A model generated the notes under the pieces. The model saw nothing but the letters and a program-made list of their open reading frames with translations, ran no database searches and was not told the origin of the DNA. Position numbers and translations under genes: made by a program. Of a stretch of DNA of 64,000 nucleotides, positions 2,261 through 52,612 are shown one piece after another (position 1 is the stretch's first letter; each line of letters opens with the position of its first letter). The stretch covers positions 514,134-578,133 of the forward strand of contig PAUF01000007.1 in assembly GCA_002712715.1 (NCBI GenBank). Reading direction: 5' to 3'. The DNA is from Flavobacteriales bacterium (GTDB taxonomy: Bacteria > Bacteroidota > Bacteroidia > Flavobacteriales > BACL11).

Positions 2261-2271
2261 AAATTAAAATC

Positions 2272-29565: not shown

Positions 29566-29590
29566 TTATGGTTAAGAATGGTAAAGATAC

Positions 29591-30097: not shown

Positions 30098-30098
30098 A

Positions 30099-30671
30099 TT
30101 AAAATAATTTTTTTTCAATAATTTCACATAAAATGTGACCAAATAAAATATGTGACTCCTGAACTCTAGCGGTATTATTTGATGGGGATTTTACTGATAT
30201 ATTACACAAATCACTTAACTTGCTCTTGTCTTTTCCTGTAAAACAAACACTCACAATCCCTAACTTATTTGCCTCAATAACAGCATTTACAATATTCTCT
30301 GAATTTCCTGAAGTTGATATCGCAATCAAAACATCACCTTTCATGCCCATAGCCTTCAACATGCGAGAGTAAACATTTTCGTATCCATAGTCATTAGCAA
30401 CTGCTGTAACATATGAGGAGTTTACATGTAATGCTTCTGCAAATAGTGGTTCTCTATCCATATTAAACCTGCCACTTAACTCCGCAGCGATATGCTGAGC
30501 ATCAGCAGCGCTGCCTCCATTTCCGCATAAGAGCAGCTTATTTCCCCTTTTATATGCATCTATAACACTTTCTACAGATAATTGAAGATTATCTAATATG
30601 TTTTTATCTTCTAATATTAGTGATTTTACACTAATTGAATCATTAATTAATTTTACAATTTGCTCATTCAT
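30099..30671 (-). CDS. gmhA: Phosphoheptose isomerase (SIS domain)
   Basis: It has the blocks CGNGGSAADAQHIAAEL and ISTSGNS and is 190 aa long. Confidence 0.88.
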   Translation of the reverse strand: MNEQIVKLINDSISVKSLILEDKNILDNLQLSVESVIDAYKRGNKLLLCGNGGSAADAQHIAAELSGRFNMDREPLFAEALHVNSSYVTAVANDYGYENVYSRMLKAMGMKGDVLIAISTSGNSENIVNAVIEANKLGIVSVCFTGKDKSKLSDLCNISVKSPSNNTARVQESHILFGHILCEIIEKKLF

Positions 30672-33627: not shown

Positions 33628-35109
33628 TCAATATAAAAATAAAGAAATACTATGAGGTTTCAATAAAAAAGAATGATTTTGATCGAACTGATTAAATTCA
33701 AACAATTGTTGATATACCAATGTCTCTCTTGGATTAATATAGTAAGAATCACTATTGGTATCAAAAAGATTATTAGAAAAATAAGCGCAAACAAGAGTTT
33801 CTCGATTATTATTTTCGGGTATATTAAACTTTGGATCTAGAGAGTCCAAAGAATCTGAGATATCAATTTCCATATTTGACCAGTTAATAATAAATACTAA
33901 TCTTAAACTATTTTCACTATCAAAACAATAGTATGCAAAAACATCAGAATTTATTTTAACTTTTTCAATTTCATATATTTTGTTAAGAAAAATTTCATTT
34001 AATAAAGTGAATGGGATAAATGTAGAGTGGATATTAAATGTATCCATATTGTTCTTAAATATTGAGCCTGAAATATCTCTTCCAGCTAAATTATGATAGC
34101 TAGCGATAGTAATATTTTTCAATTCAGAAGATGAAAATAGTTCCATCATAAAGTGAGAAACAAAAAGAGATTGCAGCATTGTGTTTCCTGTTGTTTTTGA
34201 CATTTGCAAATTCCATTCAGTTAACCAAATTTCAACATCACCAAAAATCTCAATATATTCATTGATTTTTGACTTAAATCCTATATCTAATTCATGCAGA
34301 ATGATCTCCTTGTATAAAGAGAATTTTTTTTCAATAGGGATTTCAACGCTTTCTTCAAAAATCATTTGACCTGCTTCCGCTACTCCGCTAATAACCTTTG
34401 TATAAGAGTGATGAATAATAGCGTCAAAAAAATCATATTTCGCCAATTCCGAATTCCAATTCTTAATTCTGCTTGGCATATTTTTTTTAATTGGTGCCGC
34501 CACAACAGCAATTTTAAGTTCCGGATGATTTAATCTTATTTTTGAAGCAAATTTTTTAGATAAAATAAGATAGTCATCTATGTCTTTAATTTTTTTTGAA
34601 AAAGCTCTATTTGACAATTCACAACCTAACTCTACTCCAACTATCTCAATTTTTTCTGATTTTAATCGATCTATCATAGTCAATATCTCATCAGTATCTG
34701 CAGTAATAATATTAGCAACAACTAAAGCTTTAGCATTAACTTCTTTAATCAATCTTATATAATCATTAATATAGTTATGATTGTGTCCTTTTCTATTCTG
34801 ATCTTTTATCAATCCCCTAACACGTTTAGGCATTTTCTGAGAATGCCATTTATCTACTTCACTGATTTTAAATCCATAAGCAGGGCCGCTTACATGATAA
34901 AAGTTAGATATATTACCTCCAGGGAATCTCAAAATATTTGGAGATATAAAATTAATTTTATCTAAAAATTCCTTATCATTTACATCAAAATAAGTAAATG
35001 TATTAGATGTATTAAAACCAAATAAGTTTTTATTAATAGATGCTGATTGAGGAAAAACAAATAAAGTACAAAAAAATATGAGAATACAACAAAAAATTCT
35101 TTTCATCAT
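33628..35109 (-). CDS. Secreted (beta/alpha)8 clan GH-A-like glycoside hydrolase
   Basis: It has a signal peptide and the blocks ILRFPGGN, VGVELGCE (where the acid/base NE is expected) and IWLTEWN (nucleophile position). Confidence 0.5.
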   Translation of the reverse strand: MMKRIFCCILIFFCTLFVFPQSASINKNLFGFNTSNTFTYFDVNDKEFLDKINFISPNILRFPGGNISNFYHVSGPAYGFKISEVDKWHSQKMPKRVRGLIKDQNRKGHNHNYINDYIRLIKEVNAKALVVANIITADTDEILTMIDRLKSEKIEIVGVELGCELSNRAFSKKIKDIDDYLILSKKFASKIRLNHPELKIAVVAAPIKKNMPSRIKNWNSELAKYDFFDAIIHHSYTKVISGVAEAGQMIFEESVEIPIEKKFSLYKEIILHELDIGFKSKINEYIEIFGDVEIWLTEWNLQMSKTTGNTMLQSLFVSHFMMELFSSSELKNITIASYHNLAGRDISGSIFKNNMDTFNIHSTFIPFTLLNEIFLNKIYEIEKVKINSDVFAYYCFDSENSLRLVFIINWSNMEIDISDSLDSLDPKFNIPENNNRETLVCAYFSNNLFDTNSDSYYINPRETLVYQQLFEFNQFDQNHSFLLKPHSISLFLY

Positions 35110-36237: not shown

Positions 36238-37551
36238 TTATTTTGTAAATCTACTAAAAAAGGAAATCATTCCTGAAATAATGAATATTAGAAAAAATGG
36301 TCTAAATAATACTGGCTCAAAAAAAACTGAAATTATTATAATGAAGAGAAATAATTTTTTTCTTTCTGTAAATAAAGTTTGATTTAATAAAAAATAAAAG
36401 AAAATAAAAAATACAGGGAAACCCATAGTAGCCATCATTCCAGTAAGAGAATTAGTACTTCCTTTATCTGAAAATTCTGGCTTAAGTTTAAAACTTGTTA
36501 TATTCTCTACAAATTCAAGAGCATTTCTGCAGCTTCCTTTCATTGTATAACCCTTTCGAAATTCTCTAAATGCAACTAAATCTAAACCAACTCCGGAAAG
36601 TGGGTAGTCAGATGCAATACATGGACATTGTATTAAATCAAACATTCTTTTCTGAAATGAACTTTCTTCATTACCTACCGCTTTATTAAGGACATTAGGA
36701 ATAATAATATTTTTTCCTATATAATAAGCCGAAACAATTAGAGATGCTGATATTAAAATTACAATTAAAGGGTTTCTACGAACAATATTTTGATAAATAG
36801 AATCCATGTAGAGCGATAGAATTAATACTACCATTATAATGAAACCAGATGTTGAAAAAGTGGTAAATATTGAGAAAATAATCAAAAGTATTATCCATTT
36901 TTTTTTCTGTTTAAACACAAAACCTTCAAGAAAAAGTAAAATATTCAAATATATTTGATTTATACCTGGTTCCCAAAACCATCCTTGGTTCCTCACCAAA
37001 TCTATACCAAAAAATGTATACTCATGTTTAAGATCATAAAAAAACAAATAATTAAAATGCTGGACAGTATGAGAAGGAATAATCCATTTAGGTAAATTAG
37101 ATAAATATGAATTTCCAACAACGATTCCCAAAATGAAAGTTATTAAAGAAATAATTAAAATTATTCTCAAAACAGTTCTCAAATATACAAGGAACTTATC
37201 TATACCTATATTATTAAATATATGGATGCAAATTAAAACACACGTCATAATATTTAACAAGTAGAAACCATATTTTATCGCTTCCTGCGGTAAAGGACCT
37301 GCAAGTAAATAATTATATAAAATAATTATATAGGTAAAAATTAAAGTAACTATCGAAGCGCTAAATACAACTCTCTTCAAAGGTTTTTTATATAATAACA
37401 ATGTTAATAATGATACAGCACATAATAATAAATAAGCTGGTTTCTTAAAATAAACGAAAAATATACCTCCTCCACTCAAAGTTAATAGCAAGAATAAAAA
37501 TATATTTAATTTGTTATATATCGAACTCAGTCTCATATTTTTTGATGCCAA
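36238..37551 (-). CDS. wzy: Polytopic membrane protein, O-antigen/repeat-unit polymerase (Wzy)-like
   Basis: It has 10 or more hydrophobic segments and a large loop, and sits between sulfotransferase and epimerase genes in a Wzx locus. Confidence 0.55.
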   Translation of the reverse strand: MASKNMRLSSIYNKLNIFLFLLLTLSGGGIFFVYFKKPAYLLLCAVSLLTLLLYKKPLKRVVFSASIVTLIFTYIIILYNYLLAGPLPQEAIKYGFYLLNIMTCVLICIHIFNNIGIDKFLVYLRTVLRIILIISLITFILGIVVGNSYLSNLPKWIIPSHTVQHFNYLFFYDLKHEYTFFGIDLVRNQGWFWEPGINQIYLNILLFLEGFVFKQKKKWIILLIIFSIFTTFSTSGFIIMVVLILSLYMDSIYQNIVRRNPLIVILISASLIVSAYYIGKNIIIPNVLNKAVGNEESSFQKRMFDLIQCPCIASDYPLSGVGLDLVAFREFRKGYTMKGSCRNALEFVENITSFKLKPEFSDKGSTNSLTGMMATMGFPVFFIFFYFLLNQTLFTERKKLFLFIIIISVFFEPVLFRPFFLIFIISGMISFFSRFTK

Positions 37552-38435
37552 TCAAATTGTTTTTTTACCAACTTTTCAAATTTAAATATATCGTTTTTAA
37601 AATATTTCATATACATTGATTTTTTTATTTTTTCAGGCAATTCATCATAAATAAATGGTTTCGTATTAAGTGATTGAATTCTATTTCTAATAATCTGTCG
37701 ATATTTTAATGATGGGATTAGCGTTTTAACAACGTTATTCCACCATCCTTTTTTATTTAATACTTTTTTAAGAAACTTCATTCTAGATTTACTAGAAGGA
37801 TTACTTAAGTGATCTAAATTAAAATCAAAAGATTCTAAACCCATAAATAATATTAAATTATCTATTGTTTCCTTTCTGTTATTAATAAAATCAGCTTCAA
37901 AATCTATAATGAAAAAATTTTCCAAAGAAAAGTACTCTAAATATCTCTCCATCATCAATCCATATAGACTCTGGTTATAATATGAATGACGAAGCGATGA
38001 TATATTATTATTGTTAATACTATATTGATATAATCTTGTATCCTCCTCAGCAATAGCCTGTAAGAAGGTTAATGGTTCTTCTTCATCTCTTTTGGAATGC
38101 AAATAATGTGAATAAGCGCGATCTATAGGATCTCTCAATATTAAAACAAACTTCATATCTCCGCCAAAAGCATTGAAAATTCTTCTTGGCGCTTTACTAC
38201 AAAAAAAATACGACGGAGTATAATCAACACTTATTTTTTGATTAACATCTTTATAATATGTAGACTCATACCAGGATAAACCCTTTTCATAATTTTCATC
38301 AATATCAAAAAAATGTGGTTCTTTAAAAGAGGGAGAATAAATATTTGGATGCTGCCTTAAAATATTAAACAGACTAGTAGTACCACTTTTAGCGGCTCCA
38401 ACACACATTATATTTGGACAATTTAACTTAACCAA
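37533..38435 (-). CDS. PAPS-dependent sulfotransferase, copy 2
   Basis: It has the blocks VGAAKSGTTS, KEPHFF and LRDPIDRAYSHY. Confidence 0.8.
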   Translation of the reverse strand: MVKLNCPNIMCVGAAKSGTTSLFNILRQHPNIYSPSFKEPHFFDIDENYEKGLSWYESTYYKDVNQKISVDYTPSYFFCSKAPRRIFNAFGGDMKFVLILRDPIDRAYSHYLHSKRDEEEPLTFLQAIAEEDTRLYQYSINNNNISSLRHSYYNQSLYGLMMERYLEYFSLENFFIIDFEADFINNRKETIDNLILFMGLESFDFNLDHLSNPSSKSRMKFLKKVLNKKGWWNNVVKTLIPSLKYRQIIRNRIQSLNTKPFIYDELPEKIKKSMYMKYFKNDIFKFEKLVKKQFDWHQKI

Positions 38436-39325
38436 TGTTGTAAATCTTTTTTCAAAAATTTTGAAAGTTTTAAAATATCTTTTTCATAATAATCTTTCAA
38501 AACTTTTCTTTCTATATATGACATTTCAGATGTTTTAAAACTGTATGAATCAACTAATCTATTACGTATCAATTTTCTTAATTTTTTAAAGGGAATAACA
38601 AATTTGAAGAATTGTTTTAACTTATTTTTACTAACTAATAAATTTTTAACATAATTATTTGTCCAATTCCACCCACCAACCATATATTTATTTTCTTGAT
38701 CTACTAATATAGAAGAAATTCCTAAAAAACAAAAAATGGAATCCATCTCATTCTGAGAATTATGTTTAAAATCTTCAAAAAAAACTATCTTAACATTATC
38801 AAATTCTTCTCTATATTTCTTTACCTGTTCATAATACATCCCCAAAGTTTTATACCTACTTGCAGGAGTCATTAAATTATCTTGTAAATACCTTTCCTCG
38901 CATACATTCCAAGCGCTCAAAAAATTTTCATTGGTTTCTTTAACATTATACCTTCTTACATGATGATATCCAGAATAAGCTCTATCAATTGGGTTTCTCA
39001 ATGCTATAATTATTTTGACATCATCTCCAAAATGATATTTTATTTTGGGAATCACTATTTCAGGATACATTAAATACATTACTGATGATTCTCCTCTATA
39101 AGTTAATGACTTTCCTTTATAAAACAAATCATAATATTCTTCTGAATTAATAACTCCTGAAGGTATTCGATTTACTCCTATCTCTTTATTAATTAAAAAA
39201 TGTGGTTCCTTTGGGGTGCACATATGAATTTCAGGGTGTTGATTTAAATAATTATGAATAGAAGTAGTTCCACTTTTTGCAGCGCCTACTATAAATAAAT
39301 TGGGACTAACTAATTCTCTATCCAT
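38423..39325 (-). CDS. PAPS-dependent sulfotransferase, copy 3
   Basis: It has the blocks VGAAKSGTTS, KEPHFL and LRNPIDRAYSGY. Confidence 0.8.
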   Translation of the reverse strand: MDRELVSPNLFIVGAAKSGTTSIHNYLNQHPEIHMCTPKEPHFLINKEIGVNRIPSGVINSEEYYDLFYKGKSLTYRGESSVMYLMYPEIVIPKIKYHFGDDVKIIIALRNPIDRAYSGYHHVRRYNVKETNENFLSAWNVCEERYLQDNLMTPASRYKTLGMYYEQVKKYREEFDNVKIVFFEDFKHNSQNEMDSIFCFLGISSILVDQENKYMVGGWNWTNNYVKNLLVSKNKLKQFFKFVIPFKKLRKLIRNRLVDSYSFKTSEMSYIERKVLKDYYEKDILKLSKFLKKDLQHWLS

Positions 39326-40221
39326 TTTGACAAATCTTTTTTTAACAAATTACCCAATTTCATTACATCATCCTTATAAAATTGCTTTAGTTTGGCTCTT
39401 GTTTCTAAATTCATATCATCTACCTTTTTCTTAGAAAAATTTTCTAAATTTTTTCTGATATTTTTTCTTGAATTAGAGTTAAATAGACTCTTAGAAGTTC
39501 TTCTAATTAAATTATCTCTCATAAATATTTTTTTAACAAAATCATTCTTCCATTGCAAACCCCCTACATTATGTTTTACGGAAAAATCAATTTTTTGGTT
39601 AGGGTATACTTCTAAAAAATCAAATGTTTTCTTTAACTCAAACTCTGTATTATCTTTAAAGTCATCATGAAAAATTATATGAATATTTTCAAATTCATTT
39701 TTATAATAGTTAACCATTTTATAATAAAGGCCCATATCTTGATACATTACCATTGGAGTAAGCTGCTGATCACGCTCCAATCTATCTTTTTCTAACATTA
39801 AAGCTTCTTCAAAAGAAAATGATTCCTTTAACCCCCTAGATACATGAACATATGCCGAATATGCACGATCCACTGGATTTCTCAGCATAATTATAATCTT
39901 CACATCTGATCCTAAGTATTTCTTGATGTTATTAATAGCATGCTCATAATAATATAAGTATAATACGGTGGATTCTCCTACAGCTTTGAAATCACTTGAA
40001 GATTTAAATAAGTTCTTATACTCATTCCAATCCCAAACTCCACTATGTATTCTTTTTTTCACAAGATCTTTAATAAAAAACCTTGGCTCTTTCACTTTTA
40101 AACCATTTTCAGTATATGAAGGTAAGAAAATATCATTATGCTGATTAAGATAATTATGTAAAGATGAAGTCCCACTTTTTGCAGCTCCTACAATTAAAAA
40201 ATTTGGTAATTTTAAATTCAT
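39310..40221 (-). CDS. PAPS-dependent sulfotransferase, copy 4
   Basis: It has the blocks VGAAKSGTSS, KEPRFF and LRNPVDRAYSAY. Confidence 0.8.
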   Translation of the reverse strand: MNLKLPNFLIVGAAKSGTSSLHNYLNQHNDIFLPSYTENGLKVKEPRFFIKDLVKKRIHSGVWDWNEYKNLFKSSSDFKAVGESTVLYLYYYEHAINNIKKYLGSDVKIIIMLRNPVDRAYSAYVHVSRGLKESFSFEEALMLEKDRLERDQQLTPMVMYQDMGLYYKMVNYYKNEFENIHIIFHDDFKDNTEFELKKTFDFLEVYPNQKIDFSVKHNVGGLQWKNDFVKKIFMRDNLIRRTSKSLFNSNSRKNIRKNLENFSKKKVDDMNLETRAKLKQFYKDDVMKLGNLLKKDLSKWIEN

Positions 40222-41603
40222 AATCTTATAAAAGGTAAATAAAATGTAAAAAATCCGAATTTCTTCTTAATAAAAAGAACCATAGTTAGATTCCAAAAGA
40301 TCAAACTAGACATTGTTGCGATAGCGGCTCCTAATATCCCATACTTTGGAATTAATATAAAATTTAAACCTATATTTAATATTGCCCCAAGAGACAAGAT
40401 GATAAAATAAATATTTTGATTACCAGTCATTTGAAGTATATTTCCTACAGATCCTGAAATTGAACTAACAAACCTTCCTATTGATAACAGTATAAAAGCG
40501 CTAACTCCGTATTGAGCGAATTGTGGACCAAATAATCCTAAAATAAACTCAGGGAACATAAAAAAAATAATTAATAATGGTAATGTAGTCCAGAAAATCA
40601 ATTTGGTTGATTGAAATGACACCTTTTTTAATCCCTGTAAATCATTTCTACTATACATTTCTGCAAATTTTGGTGCTGCAATACTATTTATTGCCATTAA
40701 AGAAATAGCGGCAAACATAGACAGTCGAAAAGCAGCATGGTATATACCCACTTCTGTTTTCGTATCAGCGACAAGACCATCAACAACGTTTGGAGATTTT
40801 ATAGCGCCTAACATCAACTTATCTGTCCATGACATTATGAATTGAGCAGACTGAGCAAACATTAATGGAATGGATATTTTAATAATTGTTGAATCGTTAA
40901 TTTTTTCTACTAATGAATCATAAGAAATATTTTTATAAATAGCATATCTCATAGAGAAAAACGAAAGAATAGAGACAATAAGTATACTTATTAAAAACGC
41001 ATATAATGGAACGTTATACTGATGAGCATCTTCTATTAAAAAAAATTCATGAATTATATAGAGAATAATTAATGTAAACAAAGTAATAGAAACTCGAAAA
41101 AAAAAGGAAAACATAGCAATTTTCTTCAGTCCTCTTAAACTCTGATAATGGAGTACAAACAAAGACATCGGGGTAACAAAAAAAGCTAGTAATTGTAAAA
41201 TTGAAGAATCAATATTCACAATTTCAGAAATTTGATGAGATAAAAAATACATCAGGAATGAACTCAATATAGAAGAAATGGTAATTATTTGAATCATTTG
41301 GCTATTTAGCTTAAGTATACTATACCATCTTTTCTTTGTAGCAAATGAAGAGAAAAAACGAATTGCTGTAGTATCTATGCCTAATTTTCCAAAAACAACA
41401 AAAATTTTTAAAACTGTTATAGCAAGAACATATTCTCCAAGACTATCAGCACCATATTTACGAGCTATAAAAAAAGTCAATAAATAGCCTATAGCTAAAC
41501 CTGTTATTCTTAAAATAAATGATATTGAGCTTCCCCTAAATATTTCATTGAAGTCAGAGTCTCTTAGCAAACCATTTATTTTATTCTTAATATTTGAAAT
41601 CAT
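40218..41603 (-). CDS. wzx: Polysaccharide repeat-unit flippase (Wzx, MOP superfamily)
   Basis: The 461-aa protein has about 12 TM segments and a typical polysaccharide-biosynthesis-protein layout. Confidence 0.7.
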   Translation of the reverse strand: MISNIKNKINGLLRDSDFNEIFRGSSISFILRITGLAIGYLLTFFIARKYGADSLGEYVLAITVLKIFVVFGKLGIDTTAIRFFSSFATKKRWYSILKLNSQMIQIITISSILSSFLMYFLSHQISEIVNIDSSILQLLAFFVTPMSLFVLHYQSLRGLKKIAMFSFFFRVSITLFTLIILYIIHEFFLIEDAHQYNVPLYAFLISILIVSILSFFSMRYAIYKNISYDSLVEKINDSTIIKISIPLMFAQSAQFIMSWTDKLMLGAIKSPNVVDGLVADTKTEVGIYHAAFRLSMFAAISLMAINSIAAPKFAEMYSRNDLQGLKKVSFQSTKLIFWTTLPLLIIFFMFPEFILGLFGPQFAQYGVSAFILLSIGRFVSSISGSVGNILQMTGNQNIYFIILSLGAILNIGLNFILIPKYGILGAAIATMSSLIFWNLTMVLFIKKKFGFFTFYLPFIRL

Positions 41604-41610: not shown

Positions 41611-42444
41611 CTATTCTACCAAAAACCATGGGTTTAAAAGATTTTTCTTGTTATAATTTAACTCTTGTTCAGAATTATACTTACAAACTTTGAATCCAGC
41701 AAATTTAACAATAGCATGCCCTGAAGCAGTGTCCCACTCCATAGTTGGAGCATATCTAGGATAAGCATCAGCATTGCCTTCAGCAACCATACATAACTTT
41801 AAAGAAGATCCTACACTTAGAATATCAATTTTATTATGCGTTTTTTTCTTTTGCTGAAAAAAATGTTCAGTTTCATTAGACATATGAGAACGAGAACCAA
41901 CTATTGTATAAGTTTCTCTAGTATTTTTTGCCGGTAATTTTTTAGCATTAGACATAAGCTGGTTAAAATTTTTAATTGTATGCATAATTTTAGTTTTCTT
42001 ATATGAACCCAAATCTGACATACCAAAATATAATTCTTGCTTTACAGGAACATATATAACCCCAAGTACAGGAGTGTCATTATGTATTAAAGCAATATTT
42101 ACAGTAAATTCGCCATTTCTTTTAACAAATTCTTTTGTCCCATCAAGAGGATCCACAAGCCAAAAGAAGGTCCAATCTTTTCTTTTTTCATAAGAGATCT
42201 TAGATCCTTCCTCACTTAAAATTGGAAGGTTAGTATCTCTTAACATTTTCTCAATTATATCATTACAATTTCTATCAGCCATTGTCAAGGGAGAATTATC
42301 TTTTTTGGTCTCAACAATAAAATCAGAAGCGTATACATCCATTATTTCCTTGCCTCCACTAAGAGCAGCATTTACCGATGTAATTAATAAAGATTGTGAT
42401 ACAGACTGAAATTCTAAATCGTGAATACTATTCTTGTTTTTCAT
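41611..42444 (-). CDS. cysQ: 3'(2'),5'-bisphosphate nucleotidase (PAP phosphatase, inositol-monophosphatase fold)
   Basis: It has the blocks ILSEE and WLVDPLDGTKEF. Its context is cysC and the sulfotransferases. Confidence 0.8.
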   Translation of the reverse strand: MKNKNSIHDLEFQSVSQSLLITSVNAALSGGKEIMDVYASDFIVETKKDNSPLTMADRNCNDIIEKMLRDTNLPILSEEGSKISYEKRKDWTFFWLVDPLDGTKEFVKRNGEFTVNIALIHNDTPVLGVIYVPVKQELYFGMSDLGSYKKTKIMHTIKNFNQLMSNAKKLPAKNTRETYTIVGSRSHMSNETEHFFQQKKKTHNKIDILSVGSSLKLCMVAEGNADAYPRYAPTMEWDTASGHAIVKFAGFKVCKYNSEQELNYNKKNLLNPWFLVE

Positions 42445-43151
42445 TGGTTTTCATTTAAAATTTGGAAAGCTTTGGAAGTTCCTATTCTGGAAGCTCCAGC
42501 ATCAATTAAACATTTACATTGCTCTATATTTTCGATACCTCCTGAGGCTTTAATTTCAAGCCCACTAATTGAAGATTTTATTAGTTTAACATGATATTCT
42601 TTTGCACCGAATCCACCATAATAGCCAGTGCATGTTTTAATATATACATTCCTCACAAAAGGTTGGAAATATTTATTAACTAAATAACTTATTCTAGAAG
42701 AAATTCCTGCAATTTGATTATCACTAAGAGCTGGAGTTTCTATAATCCACTTAACCGGAATATTTTTCTCATATCCAATCCTGGTTCCTTCAATAATAAC
42801 AATGTCAAACTTGTCAAAATTTTTATCCTTGTATGATCTGTAATCTGCGACATAATCCAATTCATCTGCTCCCATAGAAATCGCTTCTAAAGCGTCTTTA
42901 ACAACATTTTTTATTGGATCATTACCTTTTGGGAAATTAATCACAGTACCTAGAATAACATTTTTCTTTGAATGATCAATAATCTTTTTAGCTAAAGTGA
43001 GGTGATTAGAACGGATCATAACAGCCAAGAAGTTATTGTTAATAGCTTCAGTAACTAAATCAATTACCTTTAGTCTATTTTCCTCAGGCGTCAAACAAGC
43101 TTCTTTAGGAAGTTTAAGATAAGTAGATTCTAAATATCTGTCAATTCTCAT
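42441..43151 (-). CDS. Deoxyribose-phosphate aldolase (DeoC) family class-I aldolase
   Basis: It has the Schiff-base Lys block YIKTCTGY and the block IKASGGI...AGASRIGTS. A 4-nt overlap couples it to cysQ. Confidence 0.65.
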   Translation of the reverse strand: MRIDRYLESTYLKLPKEACLTPEENRLKVIDLVTEAINNNFLAVMIRSNHLTLAKKIIDHSKKNVILGTVINFPKGNDPIKNVVKDALEAISMGADELDYVADYRSYKDKNFDKFDIVIIEGTRIGYEKNIPVKWIIETPALSDNQIAGISSRISYLVNKYFQPFVRNVYIKTCTGYYGGFGAKEYHVKLIKSSISGLEIKASGGIENIEQCKCLIDAGASRIGTSKAFQILNENQ

Positions 43152-43173
43152 TTACAATATACATGATTTTGAG

Positions 43174-43181
43174 CAAATCTA
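43174..43181 (-). promoter_or_regulatory. -7 promoter box (TAGATTTG on the minus strand)
   Basis: The plus strand reads CAAATCTA, 23 nt upstream of ATG 43151. Confidence 0.4.
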
Positions 43182-43213
43182 GTAATTTTAAAGGAATTTA
43201 TTAAAAGAGTCTA

Positions 43214-43687
43214 TTATAAAACGATGCTACTATCAGAAAGATACTTCTCAACATCAGACTGAATAGATTCATCTACTAGTTCTCTCCATTCATGATTTCC
43301 TTCTTTAATAGAGTCCCTTATTTTAGTTGCAGAAATCCAACCAATATTTGGTGGGGGTGTAAACTCATTAATCTCATACCCTACACCTCTACCAAAATTA
43401 ACACTCTCGATATCAGGTATTATAATAACTTTAACGTCATGACCATGTGCTTCATGATATTTCTGTATCATCGCAACTGTTTGTTCAGTTGTGAAAGGAT
43501 TCTTAGCATCTGGATCAATATCTCTAACCATTATAAGCGCAGGGATTCCATCATTGATTTTTTGCATAATTAATGAAATATGCCCTTGATGATAAGGTTG
43601 AAATCTACCTACAAATATCGAATATTTTTTACTTTCATTACTAGTAGGTTCTCCACCATGATTAATTACGTCCCACTTTTTTTCCAT
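43214..43687 (-). CDS. Small HxGH nucleotidyltransferase (cytidylyltransferase-like superfamily, NMNAT-like)
   Basis: It has the motifs FVGRFQPYHQGH and ISATKIRD and is 157 aa long. The substrate is unknown. Confidence 0.6.
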   Translation of the reverse strand: MEKKWDVINHGGEPTSNESKKYSIFVGRFQPYHQGHISLIMQKINDGIPALIMVRDIDPDAKNPFTTEQTVAMIQKYHEAHGHDVKVIIIPDIESVNFGRGVGYEINEFTPPPNIGWISATKIRDSIKEGNHEWRELVDESIQSDVEKYLSDSSIVL

Positions 43688-43693
43688 AATTTC

Positions 43694-44290
43694 TTATTTT
43701 ATAATATTATTTTCTTTTAAATAATCGACAACTATTTGAGCACATTCGTCAATACCTTGTTGATCAGTTCTAATAGATAATTCTGGATTAGTGGGTACTT
43801 CATATGGAGCATCAATACCTGTAAAACCTTTAATTTCTCCGGATCTTGCTTTTTTATATAATCCTTTAGGGTCTCTGCTTTCACATACATCAAGAGGAGT
43901 ATCAACAAACACTTCAACAAAGTCTTCTCCTATAACTTTTCGGGCAGATTCTCGATCTTCAAGATAAGGAGAAATAAATGCTGTAAGAACTAAAATACCA
44001 GCGTCAGCAAACAAATTGGATACTTCAGTAATTCTTCGTATATTTTCAGTTCTATCTTCTGGAGAAAAACCTAAATCTTTATTCAATCCCATTCTAACAT
44101 TATCTCCATCTAATATATAAGTATGAATTCCCATATCATGTAATAATTTTTCTGTCGCATTAGCGATAGTAGATTTACCAGATCCTGATAAACCTGTAAA
44201 CCAAATTACACGAGATTGATGTAGGTTTTTTTTCTCTTTTAAATCTCTTGGAACACGATGTTTATGAAAATATAAATTATCTGCACTCAT
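43694..44290 (-). CDS. cysC: Adenylyl-sulfate (APS) kinase
   Basis: It has the P-loop [11 protein letters not shown] and the block [17 protein letters not shown]. Confidence 0.92.
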
Positions 44291-45479: not shown

Positions 45480-45487
45480 CAAAACTA
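45480..45487 (-). promoter_or_regulatory. -7 promoter box (TAGTTTTG on the minus strand) for gcvH-tonB
   Basis: The plus strand reads CAAAACTA, 43 nt upstream of ATG 45437. It overlaps the sprA stop. Confidence 0.35.
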
Positions 45488-48400
45488 ACCCGCTAAAGTA
45501 AATCGCAGACTGAAACCAGCGTTAGTTATCGCTCCTGGATAACTTGTAGAAATAAATGGATTCGTTATAACTTTATCATAAAACAACTTGAAATTTAACC
45601 TAGAACTAACAACATAATCTGTCGAAAATTTTATACTAATAGATTGTTGGCCCATCGTAATTTGCTCTACGTCCTCTATCACTTTTCTAATAACTGTTTT
45701 ATTATTTCTAATATTTAAATCTAATTTTATATCAAGGTCACTTGAAATTGTTTTCGAGGAACCCGCTGCTTTATATTTAAACTTCAAATCTTTAATCCTA
45801 TACCCAGTCCCAATCACATATTCACTTCCGTTAATTTCTGTAATCTGATTATTGGACATAGATAAATTTAAAGTTCTATTTTTCTTAATCTCTAATTTTG
45901 TCATTAAACTATTTTTCCAAGTTAAATCTAACTTAATCAAAGGACTAAATTGTTCATTAATCGTTACCTGCCCAATCTCGTATTTTGAAAAGAAGTTCCC
46001 AGTATTTTCATTAATATTGGATGACCAACCATCATTCTCAATATAATCTAAACTAGAAGTAAATGATCCAACAGAATAAGTGCTTCTGTAAGCGTGAGCT
46101 AAAGTAAATGTTTTAAAATATTTCTTAATGAATTTCAACCTCATTAATCCATCATAATTAACTCGCCAGTTTGGTAATGGTAATTTAGGCATGCTGCTTA
46201 AGGATGATGAAATTGGATTCTTTCCACCATATGCGGCTAAAAAGGCAGGTATTAAAACATCAGGTGAAGCTAATCCATATCCTTGAGGAAAACCAGTAGA
46301 ATCATATAATCCAGAAAAATTTGGATTCGCGGATGCAAGTCGCTTCGCTATCTCATTCCTATAATTTCTAAAATCCTGGAATGATTGTGAACTGAAATTT
46401 TCATTATCTCTCATAAAAGCAGTCTTCCATGAAATAAATGATATACTATAACTTCCATTCTGAATCGGACTTACTGAATTAAACATATTATCACTTTCAG
46501 ACCATCTAAAATATTCCTGCTGATTAAATGAATTTGTCTTATTAGCCGTAAGTTCGATTCTAAATTTCTTAATTGGCTCTACAGTACTTCTAATAATTAA
46601 ATTAGACGATGAAGTTTTGCTAAATAATGTGTTAATATTCTGATTTTGTGATAGCCATCCATTGGTAGATGCTTGATATCGAATATCTTTTTGACTTCCA
46701 AGCACAAAGGGTATACCAGGAGCCATCTCTGCCCAATTTTGACCAAAAAAATTCGACTCCGGCATAAATCCAGGAATAAAAGTACCTTCATTTCTTGTTA
46801 AATTTACTGAAATATTTTTTACAGACAAAAAAACATTCAATAATGATCTAGCTAATTTATACTGATCTTTTTTCTTATTTTCCTTGGGATTCTCTTCGGA
46901 TCTAATTCTTGAGGTTCTTCTGTTATTATTTCTCTTATTAGAAGAATTTAAAACTTTCTTAAAATAAGGCACTTTATTGTATAAAGTATTCATATTAATC
47001 TGTCCATTATGCTGAATATTATTTGAATTTTGAATTGTATTCCCAAAATCTTGCATTGATAAAGCTGCACTATTCCAATCATAATTTGCATTATATCGAG
47101 TTGTTAAACTTAAAAAATTCACTAGTGGGATTTTGCTAAAAGGCCATTGATAATTTAAAGCCAAATCATGATGATATAATGTTGGCCTTCCTAAATTCCA
47201 GAAATTTTTCCATATAGTATCTCTTTTCTCTTTAAATAAAGGGTCTTGCCTATCTATTCTACCAACTGGTTCATCAATACTTGATTGGTTTCTGACAGAA
47301 AAATCTAACTTTAAAGTTCTTGTAATATCATATTTAAGATCATATGATCTGTTCCAATTAAAATACTTATTGTAAGTAGGAGAAATTATCATATAGGAAT
47401 TATTAATATTTCTAAGTAACGTCTCATTATACATCCTTTCAATATCAGTACGATATGAAAAAGATTTTGGAATTGCATAAAAATTAATATCCTTGATTAA
47501 TCTAGCGTAAGGACCTTTTCCTATTTTTAATTTTGAAAATGGTTTAATATTTTTAGGCCTCGAACTATAATTATATGTAATCGCTCCCCTATAATTTTTT
47601 GTCCTATTATATTCAGTATTAATATTTCGAAAAAATGTTTCATTATTAGAATAAGAAATTGTAAAATTCTCTAAATCGTAAATTTTTGGCTTCTTTATCT
47701 CTTCACCTTTCTTTTGCACTTTAGTTTTTCTAATATTGGTTAGATTAATACTTTTTCTACTAACGTAATCTTGGGAAACAAATCTAAATGAATCTCTTTC
47801 TGCTTTATTTTCAAGAGAAGAGAGAGTTGTCTTAAATAAAATATCAGGATCTAATGGATTATACTGTGGGTTACTAATCTGTTCGGAAACCCCAATATAC
47901 AAAGGAATTCTAACTCCATAATCATCAGCAAAAAACTTCCCTAACTCCAAATTAGAAGACATGTCATATTGAAAATCATTAGATTTTTGTCTCTCATTTA
48001 CCTTTTTCTCAATTGAACCAAATCCAACAGTACTCATATTTCCTGCTAAAGTGACAGTTCCAAAATCTGCCATCTTAGTAGTTACTCTAGCATTGGCTGC
48101 CCATCCACCATATTCATCAAAATCAGCTAAACGCAATTCGTTTACCCAAATCTCTCCGCACTTTGCGTTCCCATCATCATCTGATGACGTAGATAGTTTT
48201 TTAGGATTCTTGACTCCTATCATTATTGTTTTTATTCTACTAAGATTAGGGTTGCCAACTACAGTAATTTTATCTCCATTAGATAGATAAGTAATAAAGG
48301 GAGTCGTTGCATCATTAGTGTTAAAATTTCTTTGCTGTTTAGCAAATTGAAATTGCTCAAATTCAATATCTATATTATTTTCAACTGGCCACACTTCGTT

Positions 48401-51400
48401 TCTAGAACTCTCACCATGATTAGTAACTTTTAAAGGCAACTCATATTCATAATAATTCGACGTAAAGTCAGTACCTAATCTAATAAAGCATGATAAATCA
48501 CCATCTAACAAATCATCCTCAGCTCCCTCAGCATGTACAAACATCTTAAGTCTTTTATATGTTCTTACATCAAGATCTGAAGTTTTGTATGCTGCTCGCG
48601 CGTCCCCATCATTTAAATTACATACTTTTAATACTAAAGATTGTTCATTATCTCTACGTAATGTAGTAGTAGTATTGTCAATATTTTGTTCTATACCTGG
48701 AGGCAGTACATAATTAATTGGTATTCTCTGTCCATTTTCCTCAATGTTAACAGACGTCACATCAAATAAAGTTTCATCTGTTTCATCATTTGGTATATAT
48801 TCTCCTGGCTCTTGCAGACTAAAATTATACCTTCTCCATTCACCTCTCACTAACTCCATAGTAGCGAATCGACATACTATAGGCTCATTAAAATCTGTCA
48901 ATATCATTCTCATAAATCTTATAGATTTAAAATCTTGAATACTTCCAACCACCTTTTCTGGATTATATACAGGAACTCTAAATTGATACCATTTAATTAT
49001 TCGATCATCACCGTTTTTTGTAGTAACATTAGTTTCTAATACATCAGAAATGTTAGGGTTACTTATATTTAATTCTGATGGAGATATTGATATTTTATAT
49101 TGAAAATAACTTTCTGACTCACCAAGAGTATTGTCACGATTAATGTCCTCAGAGTTTGGAATGGTAGTTGCAGATGTAGAATATGATTCATTAGATTGTT
49201 CAGTTGTTGCAGAATTTCCATCAAGTCCATTATATCTTTTATATCTTGTTAAAATTGATGTTTCCTGATTGTCAAAATCAGTACTTCTAAAATATAGGTA
49301 ATTATCACCAGATGGATCCTCAATCGCGTTTTGATATGCTAATGAGGAAACTCCTAAAGCAGGATTATTAACTATTTTTTGTATATAAATACTATCAAAA
49401 AATAATTTTTCATCTTCATCACTCAATCCATCAATCCCAACATCTTGATATTGTCTTGAGAGTGGGTCATTATCAAAAGCTTCTACTATTGAATAGTTTG
49501 TTGGGACTCGCCCCCATGCTGTAGTATCAACATCTATTATATTATCATCGATTGGTAATCCGTTTTCAAAACTTTTATATCCATCTTTTAATATGTCTTC
49601 TGAAACATTTCCTAAGTGAATATACATTTCTCCTCCCTCATGATTAATATTACCATCATCAGGATTAAACGGATCCATCATCCAAAACTCTATAAATTCT
49701 ATATTAGCTGTTTCAAAATCATTGGTTTCTATCTTTCTCATAATACCACCCCAATTTTTAGCAGGGTTCATCAATTCTCCAGTAAACGTCAATTGATCAA
49801 CATTATAATTATATGGACCTCTTTCATTTGGATAATATGCTAAGTCTAATATTGAAAGATTAGTAATTTGACTCCCATACTGAGGGTCCTTATTTGGAAA
49901 TACTTCCTTTTCTAATATTTCTCGACTATAATGATAAGACTGTTGAGCAATTTGATTGCCATTTGGTAAATCAATTAAATTATCAACTCCAGGAGGAGTC
50001 ACAGAGGAAGTTCTAAAAAAAACTGATGGATCTATTGTGTACCAAGAAATTAAACCTCTACGGAAGCCAGTAGATAAATCATTATTCAGATTCGAATTTT
50101 CAAATATTGAATTTTGTCCCTGAGGAATTGACGCAATATTCCATGATCTAACATTTTTAATATCAATAGAACTCCTACTAGCTTCAAAATCATCGATATA
50201 GGAGACACCTCCATCACCATTATCAATTCTCCTATGGTGTCCTGGTATTAATCTAGCTATCTCAGCGTTAGCTATTACTCTAGATTTTGTTTTAGTTTCA
50301 ATTAAAGGCAATTTGTCTATTAACTTAGTAATTAAAGGAGATTCTGATTGATAAGTCCCATCAATACCGAGAATTGTATTTGATATAGGTTCATCACCGG
50401 CATTTATTTTATTTACATATGGAGCCTCAGACAATCTTAACAATGTACCTCCAAGAATAAAGTCTTTATTTATTTTATAATCAGCGTGAAAACCCAGCAA
50501 ACTTTTATCCTGTATACCAAACATTGCATTATTCTCTAGTGAAATTTTAATTGGAATACCCGAATTAAGAATGCCTTCATCAATAATTGTAACTCTTCCC
50601 AACATATAATCAACCGTATAATGCTGATTTTCAATTAGCTTTTGAGACCCTGCTGAAACCGTAACAGACCCTTCCGGGACATTCATAGCATTTAAAGAAA
50701 TCTCTGACCCAGCTGAAGATTTATAAGATCCTTTAAGTCTAAACTTATTTAACTGAGGATATTGCCTAGCTATTGTAAGGGTTGAATCATAAAGATAATC
50801 ATAAACATATTTATTCGCGATATTATTATCATTGAATTTTTCTCTAAGATCTGATCCAAATGGCTCTAATGTTGGAAATATCACTCGACCATTTGAAGAT
50901 TTAGCGGTAACTCCTTCAATAAAATCAAATATTCCATCAGAAACATCATTCTGCTGCTGATTTAAATTATCAAGATTTAATAATTTGATTAATGGAACTC
51001 CATCAATATTTCCCTCAGGAATATAATTAGTCAATCCACCAGATACCTCAGTGTTTTCATAAATAACGTCTAATATAAACTCATTCGCACTCATCTGATA
51101 CGCTCCTAACGCATAAATATTCTTCATCATTAAATCCCAATTAATTAGTTTCGGAGAAAATGTGGTGCCTTTAATTAATTTGAGTATTAATGATTGTGGA
51201 GCGGTAGGACCATTATTAGTTAGCTCACCTACTTGGAAGGTTTCATTACCTATAGTATATTGAAATGCTACCGCAAGCACTTCATCATTGTTTAAAGCTT
51301 GATTCAATGATATATATCCAAGCTGAGGGTGTAAAGTATACTCAGATTCATTTAACTTCCTGGCTCTTTCTAACTTTTCATAGTCTTGTCCAGCAATGAA

Positions 51401-52612
51401 ATTAATAGAAGACAAAGGTCCTAACTCAGAATTTACTTGGCTTATATCTCTAATTCCTGGATATTGCGATAATAATTTTTGATACATATCATTAGCCTGA
51501 TCATTATCTGGAAATGGAGAAGTAAATGAAGTGGTAAAGTTATTGTTTTGAATATTGCCCTGAGTTTCTCCAAGATCCATAAACGACAAAATATTTCTAC
51601 TATTTTCTGTAACACCTGTTTTATTAGTGATCCACACCTCTACTCTAGTTATATTTATTGAAGAATTTATAAATGGTAAATTTTCTAAAGCTGAATTATA
51701 GTTATCTTTAAAATAGTGAGATAAGAAAAAATGCTTATTTGCTTCGTACTGATCTGCATAAATATCAAAATCAGTAGTTTGCGCTCCTCCTGTAACTTCA
51801 ACTTCAGATGTTGTAGACTTTTGCTGAGAAAGAATACCTGTAATAGTTGTTTTTCCAAACTGAAGTTTCGTTTTTAATCCAAATAAACTTTGACTTCCAG
51901 TAATTAAGGTTCCATTAAGAGGCAAACTAACATTTCCGATTTCTATTTTCTTTATAATCTCATCTTCAAATCCTGTATACTCTAATTTCATGTCATTTTC
52001 AAAATTAAAGGTAGCTTCGGTATTGAAATTAGTAGTTAATTTTAGCTTTTCTCCAATTTTACCAATTACATTCATCTGAATTTTTTCTTGAAAATCAAAA
52101 GACGCTGTCCTTCTTTGTTCAACAGTATAGTTTGGATTGTCTAAACGATTAACTCGAACTGAAAAAATTAATTCAGCAGAACCTTGGGGTCTAATATCTA
52201 CAGTATTACCACCAAAAACCTTATCAAATGCATCACTACCAATAAACAATTTAGGTCTTCCATAATTGCGATCAACTAAGCCTCTCCTTTGTTCTGATTG
52301 TGATTTCCAATAATTAGACTGTGAATTTGAAGTTTGATAATTTAGATATTCACTAAACGACATAACCGTTTTATTAAAAATATCTGTATTACCTATTCGG
52401 GAATAGATAATATATTTTCCAGTTTTAGGATTATATACAACCTCTTTCTGAAAATTATTTGGTAGTTCCATGTATAAGCCTCCATATTGAGTTGAACTAA
52501 ATGGAAACGCAAGATGGTTTTTTGTAGTATCATCAACAGTCATTGCATGCAATGAGCTACTTAAGAAAAAGATGCTTAAAAAAACAGGTATATAAAAAAT
52601 ATTGCTTTTCAA
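45485..52612 (-). CDS. sprA: T9SS translocon / cell-surface protein SprA
   Basis: The 2375-aa protein has a signal peptide and beta-rich composition to the C-terminus. Its size and its gcvH/ruvA neighbourhood are typical of Flavobacteriia sprA. Confidence 0.85.
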   Translation of the reverse strand: MKSNIFYIPVFLSIFFLSSSLHAMTVDDTTKNHLAFPFSSTQYGGLYMELPNNFQKEVVYNPKTGKYIIYSRIGNTDIFNKTVMSFSEYLNYQTSNSQSNYWKSQSEQRRGLVDRNYGRPKLFIGSDAFDKVFGGNTVDIRPQGSAELIFSVRVNRLDNPNYTVEQRRTASFDFQEKIQMNVIGKIGEKLKLTTNFNTEATFNFENDMKLEYTGFEDEIIKKIEIGNVSLPLNGTLITGSQSLFGLKTKLQFGKTTITGILSQQKSTTSEVEVTGGAQTTDFDIYADQYEANKHFFLSHYFKDNYNSALENLPFINSSINITRVEVWITNKTGVTENSRNILSFMDLGETQGNIQNNNFTTSFTSPFPDNDQANDMYQKLLSQYPGIRDISQVNSELGPLSSINFIAGQDYEKLERARKLNESEYTLHPQLGYISLNQALNNDEVLAVAFQYTIGNETFQVGELTNNGPTAPQSLILKLIKGTTFSPKLINWDLMMKNIYALGAYQMSANEFILDVIYENTEVSGGLTNYIPEGNIDGVPLIKLLNLDNLNQQQNDVSDGIFDFIEGVTAKSSNGRVIFPTLEPFGSDLREKFNDNNIANKYVYDYLYDSTLTIARQYPQLNKFRLKGSYKSSAGSEISLNAMNVPEGSVTVSAGSQKLIENQHYTVDYMLGRVTIIDEGILNSGIPIKISLENNAMFGIQDKSLLGFHADYKINKDFILGGTLLRLSEAPYVNKINAGDEPISNTILGIDGTYQSESPLITKLIDKLPLIETKTKSRVIANAEIARLIPGHHRRIDNGDGGVSYIDDFEASRSSIDIKNVRSWNIASIPQGQNSIFENSNLNNDLSTGFRRGLISWYTIDPSVFFRTSSVTPPGVDNLIDLPNGNQIAQQSYHYSREILEKEVFPNKDPQYGSQITNLSILDLAYYPNERGPYNYNVDQLTFTGELMNPAKNWGGIMRKIETNDFETANIEFIEFWMMDPFNPDDGNINHEGGEMYIHLGNVSEDILKDGYKSFENGLPIDDNIIDVDTTAWGRVPTNYSIVEAFDNDPLSRQYQDVGIDGLSDEDEKLFFDSIYIQKIVNNPALGVSSLAYQNAIEDPSGDNYLYFRSTDFDNQETSILTRYKRYNGLDGNSATTEQSNESYSTSATTIPNSEDINRDNTLGESESYFQYKISISPSELNISNPNISDVLETNVTTKNGDDRIIKWYQFRVPVYNPEKVVGSIQDFKSIRFMRMILTDFNEPIVCRFATMELVRGEWRRYNFSLQEPGEYIPNDETDETLFDVTSVNIEENGQRIPINYVLPPGIEQNIDNTTTTLRRDNEQSLVLKVCNLNDGDARAAYKTSDLDVRTYKRLKMFVHAEGAEDDLLDGDLSCFIRLGTDFTSNYYEYELPLKVTNHGESSRNEVWPVENNIDIEFEQFQFAKQQRNFNTNDATTPFITYLSNGDKITVVGNPNLSRIKTIMIGVKNPKKLSTSSDDDGNAKCGEIWVNELRLADFDEYGGWAANARVTTKMADFGTVTLAGNMSTVGFGSIEKKVNERQKSNDFQYDMSSNLELGKFFADDYGVRIPLYIGVSEQISNPQYNPLDPDILFKTTLSSLENKAERDSFRFVSQDYVSRKSINLTNIRKTKVQKKGEEIKKPKIYDLENFTISYSNNETFFRNINTEYNRTKNYRGAITYNYSSRPKNIKPFSKLKIGKGPYARLIKDINFYAIPKSFSYRTDIERMYNETLLRNINNSYMIISPTYNKYFNWNRSYDLKYDITRTLKLDFSVRNQSSIDEPVGRIDRQDPLFKEKRDTIWKNFWNLGRPTLYHHDLALNYQWPFSKIPLVNFLSLTTRYNANYDWNSAALSMQDFGNTIQNSNNIQHNGQINMNTLYNKVPYFKKVLNSSNKRNNNRRTSRIRSEENPKENKKKDQYKLARSLLNVFLSVKNISVNLTRNEGTFIPGFMPESNFFGQNWAEMAPGIPFVLGSQKDIRYQASTNGWLSQNQNINTLFSKTSSSNLIIRSTVEPIKKFRIELTANKTNSFNQQEYFRWSESDNMFNSVSPIQNGSYSISFISWKTAFMRDNENFSSQSFQDFRNYRNEIAKRLASANPNFSGLYDSTGFPQGYGLASPDVLIPAFLAAYGGKNPISSSLSSMPKLPLPNWRVNYDGLMRLKFIKKYFKTFTLAHAYRSTYSVGSFTSSLDYIENDGWSSNINENTGNFFSKYEIGQVTINEQFSPLIKLDLTWKNSLMTKLEIKKNRTLNLSMSNNQITEINGSEYVIGTGYRIKDLKFKYKAAGSSKTISSDLDIKLDLNIRNNKTVIRKVIEDVEQITMGQQSISIKFSTDYVVSSRLNFKLFYDKVITNPFISTSYPGAITNAGFSLRFTLAG

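Follow-up and report, generated by a model that had tools for sequence, protein, structure and literature searches.

A 157-residue HxGH nucleotidyltransferase coupled to APS kinase is a candidate minimal ATP sulfurylase

The window, by which we mean the whole 64-kb stretch of DNA that was analyzed and to which all coordinates refer, comes from a low-GC (~30%) metagenome-assembled genome (MAG) of a marine member of the Flavobacteriales, and it contains a small nucleotidyltransferase, hereafter NT, whose gene lies among genes for the synthesis and use of 3'-phosphoadenosine 5'-phosphosulfate (PAPS) and whose function is the subject of this work. Four genes on the minus strand form the core of the locus. 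The first, cysC (43694-44290), encodes a stand-alone adenosine 5'-phosphosulfate (APS) kinase of 198 amino acids, which matches PF01583 with 239.5 bits, carries the P-loop GLSGSGKST, and is a member of the APS kinase model TIGR00455 (276.7 bits against a cut-off of 138.7). The gene for NT (43214-43687), a protein of 157 amino acids with an HxGH motif and a match to PF01467 (27.6 bits, cut-off 21), starts 6 nt past the cysC stop, and is followed after 62 nt by the gene for a short class I aldolase of the DeoC type (42441-43151; 236 amino acids) which resembles deoxyribose-phosphate aldolase (DERA) and scores 130.4 bits against TIGR00126, for which the cut-off is 117.3. The aldolase stop overlaps by 4 nt with cysQ (41611-42444), which encodes a 277-amino-acid 3'(2'),5'-bisphosphate nucleotidase that converts 3'-phosphoadenosine 5'-phosphate (PAP) to AMP and phosphate (TIGR01331, 261.6 bits, cut-off 228.8). 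The first-pass annotation had described these four open reading frames (ORFs), the gap and the overlap as they are given here, together with the motifs GRFQPYHQGH and ISATKIRD in NT, and all of this was confirmed.

The quartet belongs to a tight minus-strand run that begins downstream of SprA (45485-52612), GcvH and a TonB_C protein. After cysQ the run continues with a Wzx-type polysaccharide flippase (40218-41603; PF01943 and PF01554), three tandem PAPS-dependent sulfotransferases (39310-40221, 38423-39325 and 37533-38435; PF00685 and PF13469 in each), a Wzy-like polymerase (36238-37551; a weak match to PF04932 of 28.3 bits), an epimerase and an unknown ORF, and then with a fourth sulfotransferase within the glycosyltransferase part (32754-33611; PF00685, 71.6 bits), GT2 and GT1 glycosyltransferases, a GmhA-like SIS protein, a GmhB-like HAD protein, a GDP-mannose dehydratase and a WecA-like initiating transferase. 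A Wzy_C gene occupies the position of the Wzy-like gene in relatives, and the Wzy-like gene shows that the sulfation genes belong to a Wzx/Wzy glycan locus. Pfam scans of essentially all window ORFs of at least ~160 amino acids gave neither a Sat match (PF01747) nor one to PF01507 of the CysD type, and no GTPase resembling CysN; signatures of Sat, CysD and CysN were likewise absent when all six frames of the window were scanned for motifs, in agreement with the earlier statement that the window has no ATP sulfurylase. The same protein as NT is recorded at NCBI as CMP51_04355 (Flavobacteriales bacterium), and it also occurs in Tara Oceans data; 2735 homologues of it were counted in the protein collection, and the cysC-NT-DeoC-cysQ quartet is found in identical form on 14 independent contigs, so that these are real genes and not chance ORFs. 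A promoter and terminator scan for operon boundaries gave counts equal to those in shuffled sequence, using the sigma-70 consensus, which is unsuitable for Bacteroidota.

The proximity of NT to an APS kinase is found repeatedly outside the window, often in the form of a single polypeptide. An exhaustive search of 1.84 billion representative proteins yielded 1069 NT relatives, and when the best 150 (50%-identity representatives) were examined, 39 proved to be fusions with an APS kinase (APSK), 26 in the order APSK-NT and 13 in the order NT-APSK, with kinase halves that pass TIGR00455 at 189-257 bits. A second search brought in at least 120 more fusions of the order NT-APSK, from Omnitrophota, Woesearchaeota and other groups. 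When one genome per species was scanned, NT relatives turned up in at least 525 genomes, and the best 80 loci, which come from Flavobacteriales, Chitinophagaceae, Marinimicrobia, MGIII archaea, SAR11, SAR86, CPR phyla, Omnitrophota, Acidobacteriota, Planctomycetota and Gammaproteobacteria, were analyzed: cysC is fused to NT in 13 of them and is adjacent on the same strand in 30, and a short APSK-like kinase is fused or adjacent in 3 more (SAR11, SAR86), which gives 46 of 80 species genomes, in more than 10 phyla, with an APS kinase or a kinase of that kind fused or adjacent to NT. Sulfotransferases (PF00685, PF19798, PF06990/PF03567) recur near NT in several lineages. The pairing extends to viruses, since at least 415 viral contigs in IMG/VR carry an NT relative, with an identity to the window NT of up to 76%, and an APS-kinase homologue directly adjoins NT in 72 of the 80 best viral contigs (L103-L182); the viral NT-APSK pair looks like a widespread auxiliary module, a "mini PAPS synthase".

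A second kind of evidence is provided by loci in which NT is exchanged for a known ATP sulfurylase. Homologues of the short DeoC of the window were searched for and their contigs inspected, which revealed sister Flavobacteriales loci (L092/L093, L100, L101 and L102) in which the DeoC-cysQ-wzx-sulfotransferase-Wzy unit is kept, accompanied in L092/L093 and L101 by SprA-GcvH-TonB, and in which the slot of cysC-NT is occupied by cysC-cysD-cysN on the opposite strand. In L092, where the locus was compared directly with the window, the shared genes are 50-70% identical; a scan of that locus gave 605 bits for CysN (NF003478, cut-off 590) and 442 bits for CysD (NF009214, cut-off 413), and tblastn found no NT in L092/L093. 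In the NT-bearing loci no Sat, CysD or CysN signature was found within +/-10 kb (1.55 Mb in total). The first-pass annotation had asked whether the quartet is conserved in other genomes, and relatives do show it in synteny, with variants. Three configurations can be distinguished: cysN-cysD-cysC beside the short DeoC and cysQ; cysC-NT-DeoC(short)-cysQ, as in the window, L011 and L096-L099; and cysC-NT-DeoC(long)-ALDH-ALDH'-cysQ, with genes of aldehyde dehydrogenase (ALDH) type inserted, as in L001-L010 and L012. All of them contain cysC, cysQ, a DeoC and either CysDN or NT, never both and never neither. The occupation of the same slot beside cysC in otherwise syntenic loci implies the same role in PAPS supply, and the exchange is an argument that both yield APS. 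No other gene of the block is as well conserved as NT, which is 78-83% identical to its relatives, against 71-75% for cysC and 61-67% for cysQ.

NT also occurs in an operon in which APS is expected to be consumed by a different enzyme. In three MAGs (L013-L015) an NT which is 77-79% identical to that of the window follows, in this order, an Rrf2 regulator, an 823-amino-acid sulfite reductase (NIR_SIR and TusA) and a thioredoxin-dependent APS reductase (273 bits with TIGR02055, cut-off 235), and precedes a TrpD-like protein. The operon contains no kinase, and none is necessary, because APS reductase consumes APS directly. ATP sulfurylase is the sole step of assimilatory sulfate reduction that is missing from this operon, and NT fills its position.

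The fusions, the adjacency, the APS-reductase operon and the displacement by CysDN constitute four independent comparative lines which point to ATP sulfurylase. The functional class was judged by genomic linkage to APS kinase and/or APS reductase and by exchange with a recognized ATP sulfurylase, and NT shows both. On the strength of this genomic context, NT is most likely a minimal ATP sulfurylase, catalyzing the conversion of ATP and sulfate to APS and pyrophosphate (PPi).

The sequence of NT must be considered separately from its context, because it leads towards a different group of enzymes. Three motifs define the family, GR[FWY]QPxHxGH, GRxVGY and IS[AG]TxxR, which in NT take the form G27-R-F-Q-P-Y-H33-Q-G-H36, G99-R100-G-V-G-Y104 and I-S119-A-T121-K-I-R124; in the 80 genome copies the GRxVGY-type loop and the third motif are kept without exception, and the first is kept in all but one copy at a contig edge. 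The best NCBIfam matches of NT are models of nicotinamide mononucleotide (NMN) adenylyltransferase (NMNAT) of the NadM/archaeal type (TIGR01527 and NF002243), one of which gives 50.3 bits where 127 are required and another 42.6 bits where 181.2 are required. The nucleotide-binding motifs HxGH (H33-Q-G-H36) and S-x-T-x-x-R (S119-A-T121-K-I-R124) are both present, but they are common to the whole superfamily and therefore do not single out an NMNAT. The sequence and profile matches of NT in the PDB span only its N-terminal half (profile positions 13-83). When NT is aligned with the NMNAT of M. jannaschii (1f9a), the spacing from TPP to SGT is ~36 residues in the latter and 9 in NT (FTPPPNIGWISAT), so that NT is without ~27 residues between the TPP and S-x-T motifs, in the C-terminal half, and the segment N-x-x-W-V-x-Y of NMNATs is replaced by N-x-G-R-G-V-G-Y; in NMNATs the C-terminal half with N-x-x-W-V-x-Y forms the NMN pocket. 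An AlphaFold (AF2) model of NT computed from a 34-sequence alignment is confident, with a predicted local distance difference test (pLDDT) score of 90.1, and shows only a moderate resemblance to NMNAT and, as the second-best structural match, phosphopantetheine adenylyltransferase (PPAT), with template modelling (TM) scores of ~0.6.

The profile comparison that the first-pass annotation had proposed for NT gave a divided result: the generic cytidylyltransferase domain TIGR00125 was passed (28.2 bits against 27.7), but the cut-offs of the NMNAT models and of the CoaD model TIGR01510 (21.2 bits against 103.3) were not reached, the window NT had no PF01747 match at E <= 0.01, and no HldC or TagD model stood above noise in the NCBIfam scan. 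In the Pfam scan NT matches PF01467 alone, and the folds of CysD and CysN were not encountered. The active-site motifs of Sat, QxRNPxHxxH and GRDHAG, are not found in NT, nor is the PUA-like N-terminal domain, the N-terminal extension of NT being only 20 residues long; the HxxH spacing and the G-R-x loop of NT are analogous to those of Sat and not identical to them. A close homology of NT to Sat was considered and rejected, since no Sat occurs among the best 50 fold matches or the best 60 PDB profile matches listed, and marginal model matches are seen in distant family members only: P0247 reaches 26 bits against PF01747 (cut-off 24.3), a weak likeness to Sat, and P0128 and P0154 align weakly to NF004040, a model of Sat-CysC, starting near model position 302, which lies before its kinase part. 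No NCBIfam (June 2026) or Pfam model is specific to the NT family, whose members are labelled in their sources as hypothetical or cytidyltransferase-like, the fusions being labelled just adenylyl-sulfate kinase.

Several observations weigh against the assignment of NT as an ATP sulfurylase. The nearest sequences and solved structures are those of NMNAT and PPAT and not of Sat, so that the assignment rests on context. In cultured phages of the Salvovirus type, fusions of an NT domain with a short kinase (30-38% identity) lie beside a COG3236/NADAR-type gene, which in Xylella phage Bacata the fusion follows; this neighbour is a hint of NAD or ADP-ribose chemistry in a distant phage subfamily, and the most divergent subfamilies may differ in function. 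About 29 Dadabacteria genomes have a stand-alone NT copy among unrelated genes. Finally, NT is without GTPase coupling, though Sat also has none.

Three other accounts of NT have to be set against these data, two of which, together with sulfate adenylylation, were the options named in the first-pass annotation. If NT were an ordinary NadM-type enzyme adenylylating NMN or nicotinic acid mononucleotide (NaMN) in NAD salvage, and merely adjoined cysC, then its best profile, PDB and fold matches, which are archaeal NMNAT/NadM, its NadM-like motifs GRFQPxHxGH and NPFT, the NADAR-type gene next to the distant phage relatives and the weak matches to NMNAT-Nudix proteins of Brevundimonas phages would all be accounted for. 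However, the matches remain far below the model cut-offs and confined to the N-terminal half, the residues corresponding to the NMN pocket are deleted or replaced, and the family is fused in both orders to bona fide APS kinases, stands in an APS-reductase operon and is swapped for CysDN in situ; moreover, no NAD gene recurs as a neighbour of NT in the loci examined. The window itself carries, on the plus strand at 378-7240, a kynurenine-pathway-like run consisting of an aldehyde dehydrogenase (378-1847), an ACMSD-like Amidohydro_2 protein (2832-3869), a protein like cyclase/kynurenine formamidase (3866-4666), a kynureninase (4554-5909) and a KMO-like FAD monooxygenase (5906-7240). A de novo route of the kynurenine type feeds NaMN and uses NadD rather than NadM, and the run suggests that NAD is made de novo from tryptophan, which fits with NT not being needed as an NMNAT. 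A plain NMNAT was rejected because of the low model scores, the gap in the C-terminal half and the genomic surroundings, and it is considered very unlikely.

The other option, the activation of a sugar or polyol phosphate for the glycan (heptose-1-phosphate as by HldC, glycerol-3-phosphate as by TagD, or a deoxy-sugar phosphate derived from DeoC), draws on the GmhA-like SIS protein, the GmhB-like HAD protein and the DeoC aldolase of the locus and on the narrow passing of TIGR00125. It does not agree with the silence of the HldC and TagD models, and it gives no rationale for the APSK fusions. NT is 62-83% identical across MAGs of Flavobacteriales, "Nitrospiraceae" and Dadabacteria whose flanks have no glycan genes, and it is the most conserved part of the block while the glycan genes vary; the DeoC, ALDH and glycan genes accompany NT in one Flavobacteriales clade only, and DeoC stays with cysQ when CysDN takes the place of NT. 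This option was therefore rejected as well, and its probability is judged to be minimal. Sulfate adenylylation is accordingly the one of the three options that is favoured. A third alternative goes beyond them: NT and its kinase partner might make some other 3'-phospho-adenylylated compound, or NT might activate another oxyanion (selenate, molybdate or phosphonate) or act as an accessory to a Sat or CysDN encoded elsewhere. A nucleotidyltransferase followed by a P-loop 3'-kinase is the logic of coenzyme A synthesis, with PPAT as the second-best structural match, and in SAR11, SAR86 and phages the kinase paired with NT is short and divergent and is not established as an APS kinase. Nevertheless, the kinases that accompany NT in the window and in the majority of fusions are APS kinases by the equivalog model, the contexts are those of PAPS users and recyclers (sulfotransferases, CysQ) or of APS reductase with sulfite reductase, and the exchange with CysDN argues for APS, which leaves this alternative unlikely.

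If NT is an ATP sulfurylase, then it would have arisen by recruitment of a member of the NadM/archaeal-NMNAT branch, within the superfamily of HxGH nucleotidyltransferases, and the locus would operate as follows. NT would make APS from ATP and sulfate, CysC would phosphorylate this APS, the resulting PAPS would serve the four sulfotransferases of the Wzx/Wzy glycan locus, and CysQ would recycle the by-product PAP to AMP. By analogy with the superfamily, H33 and H36 together with S119, T121 and R124 would hold ATP and stabilize the transition state, and the invariant Arg of the GRxVGY loop (R100) may bind the sulfate anion; the shortening of the C-terminal half by ~27 residues, combined with the GRxVGY loop, could produce a small pocket for an anion where NMNATs have the NMN pocket. 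The equilibrium of the reaction is unfavourable, and the APS kinase next to NT or fused with it (or else APS reductase), along with pyrophosphatase, would draw it forward, as for enzymes of the Sat type.

Comparison with established enzymes helps to locate the proposed one. Sat (PF01747; EC 2.7.7.4), including its bifunctional forms Sat-CysC and CysC-Sat, catalyzes the reaction proposed here for NT and belongs, like NT, to the HxxH/ISxT nucleotidyltransferase superfamily; both occur fused to APS kinase in either domain order, the Sat fusions being bifunctional PAPS synthases, and both are found in assimilatory operons beside APS reductase and sulfite reductase or beside sulfotransferases. Sat is ~380-400 amino acids long, whereas the core of NT comprises ~135 amino acids and has no PUA-like domain, the motifs GRxQPxHxGH and GRxVGY stand in NT where Sat has QxRNPxHxxH and GRDHAG, and NT is closer to NadM than to Sat. 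CysDN, the heterodimeric GTP-coupled enzyme, is unrelated to NT in fold, CysD being a PP-loop ATP pyrophosphatase (PAPS_reduct fold) and CysN an EF-Tu-like GTPase, and it comprises ~720 amino acids in two subunits against the 157 of NT, which has no GTPase. The archaeal NMNATs (1f9a, 1ej2, 2qjt) share GRFQPxHxGH, NPFT and S-x-T-x-x-R with NT, and differ from it in the model scores, the C-terminal half, the GRxVGY substitution and the NAD context described above. The pair formed by PPAT (CoaD) and dephospho-CoA kinase (CoaE) follows the same two-step logic, in which a small HxGH adenylyltransferase is followed by a P-loop kinase acting on the adenosine 3'-OH, but its substrate and context are different, and the kinase considered here is by model an APS kinase and not CoaE.

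Sulfate activation is the entry to assimilatory sulfur metabolism and to all PAPS-dependent sulfation, and to our knowledge only Sat and CysDN are used to recognize it when pathways are catalogued in databases or metabolism is reconstructed from genomes and metagenomes. A full-text literature search, in which subscription-only papers were not covered, found no description of an NMNAT-like or third-type ATP sulfurylase or of genomes that have an APS kinase without a sulfurylase. The function and the pathway are known; the NT family is neither Sat nor CysDN and fails the tests of NMNAT membership, and we propose that it is probably a third structural solution for sulfate activation. In its general form the proposal, which we regard as likely, is that the GRxQPxHxGH/GRxVGY/ISATxxR family is a third and minimal class of ATP sulfurylase descended from an NMNAT-like ancestor, which with APS kinase forms a mobile two-gene or fused "mini PAPS synthase" in more than 10 bacterial and archaeal phyla (including SAR11, SAR86, SAR406, Dadabacteria, CPR and Omnitrophota) and in hundreds of viral genomes, and which on its own feeds APS reductase. 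If this is correct, many genomes and viruses that are scored as unable to activate sulfate would be competent to do so, and calls of "no sulfate assimilation/sulfation" would change for abundant streamlined marine lineages, for CPR/DPANN-like organisms and for viruses, in which a widespread auxiliary metabolic module would have been identified. It would also explain how sulfated glycans are made by marine Flavobacteriales without CysDN at this locus, and it would offer an enzyme of 157 amino acids, or a fusion of ~300, for the regeneration of PAPS in biotechnology.

The DeoC aldolase requires separate treatment. The retention of its catalytic Lys, reported in the first-pass annotation, is borne out by the alignment with solved DERAs, in which YIKTCTGY lines up with the segment of the Schiff-base Lys (FIKTSTGF in 1mzh), and the further catalytic Asp (ELD) and Lys (KASGG) of 1mzh are also retained; the protein is a DeoC member by TIGR00126, as given above, and falls below the threshold of PF01791 (19.4 bits against 23.8). 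Judged by its sequence, it is a real DERA-like enzyme with intact catalytic residues. It heads the cysQ-wzx-sulfotransferase unit, it accompanies NT in a single clade, and it stays directly upstream of cysQ where NT is replaced by CysDN, which does not agree with the earlier idea that it serves NT: DeoC lies outside the conserved two-gene cysC-NT module and travels with cysQ. Most NT-bearing relatives (L001-L010, L012) have between NT and cysQ a different, long DeoC of 301 amino acids (TIGR00126, 185 bits), which is only locally similar to that of the window (~28% identity over 85 amino acids) and is followed by a full aldehyde dehydrogenase (484 amino acids) and a 286-amino-acid ALDH-like protein whose match to ALDH models is confined to their N-terminal half (for example L005:8579-11802). 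The presence of two non-orthologous DeoC genes at the same position suggests selection for DERA activity there. The simplest reading is that DeoC is a housekeeping gene of deoxyribose-phosphate catabolism linked to cysQ, with ALDH removing acetaldehyde, and it may have a role in the glycan or in the handling of nucleotide by-products; the fact that a DERA-type aldolase is strictly paired with cysQ in these Flavobacteriales would hint at a link between PAP recycling and deoxyribose-phosphate metabolism.

Some parts of the glycan locus stand apart from the sulfation genes. The GmhA-like SIS protein, the GmhB-like HAD/PNK3P phosphatase and the GDP-mannose 4,6-dehydratase are encoded together at 28528-30671 (minus), and there is no recognizable heptose kinase or nucleotidyltransferase with them in the locus; the heptose/deoxyhexose branch of the glycan is incompletely accounted for. 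Two large minus-strand ORFs in or beside the locus, at 33628-35109 (493 amino acids) and 25825-27411 (528 amino acids), have no Pfam match at E <= 0.001.

Variants of the NT gene and of its kinase partner were encountered in several groups. In single-cell genomes of SAR86 and SAR11 (L086:9568-9978; L081; L084) NT is paired with a truncated APS-kinase-like P-loop protein of ~136 amino acids, which is without the C-terminal part of CysC and is of the same type as the phage partner. The fusions of the Salvovirus-type phages, 243-246 amino acids long, combine a short APS-kinase-like domain with an NT domain (GRYQPWHAGH, YGRDVGY), as in Xylella phage Bacata (L090:4578-5318) and Stenotrophomonas phage DLP_6 (L091:3590-4321), and are annotated as "kinase", "adenylylsulfate kinase" or hypothetical. 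Four metagenome proteins (P0127, P0174, P0175 and P0247) have a Cys-rich N-terminal extension of ~180-240 amino acids with HNH-like CxxC pairs; the possibility that this is a new fused enzyme domain was rejected, since it resembles the HNH-type homing-endonuclease module typical of phage genes, which in these copies is fused to, or read through into, the NT gene. In a further metagenome protein, P0132, the NT domain is fused to DUF6717 (PF20475, 117 bits), a domain of unknown function.

The neighbours of NT outside the window include some that belong to other processes. In four Bacteroidetes single-cell genomes (L018, L024, L029 and L041) cysC-NT is followed directly by metK (S-adenosylmethionine synthetase) and ahcY (S-adenosylhomocysteine hydrolase), identities which were judged from sequence only and which indicate a sulfur/methyl-cycle neighbourhood rather than a glycan locus. 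In the APS-reductase operon NT is directly followed by a TrpD-like protein of glycosyltransferase family 3 (TIGR01245, 161 bits, below the cut-off of 199) and accompanied by a DUF420 membrane protein (for example L015:10477-12311); a phosphoribosyltransferase that handles PPi or AMP would be an intriguing neighbour for a candidate ATP sulfurylase. In two large contigs rich in sugar-modifying genes, a HAD phosphatase of the PNK3P family is encoded directly upstream of an NT-APSK fusion (L087:9479-9997 and L088:9167-9658), and this phosphatase is possibly a PAP 3'-phosphatase other than CysQ.

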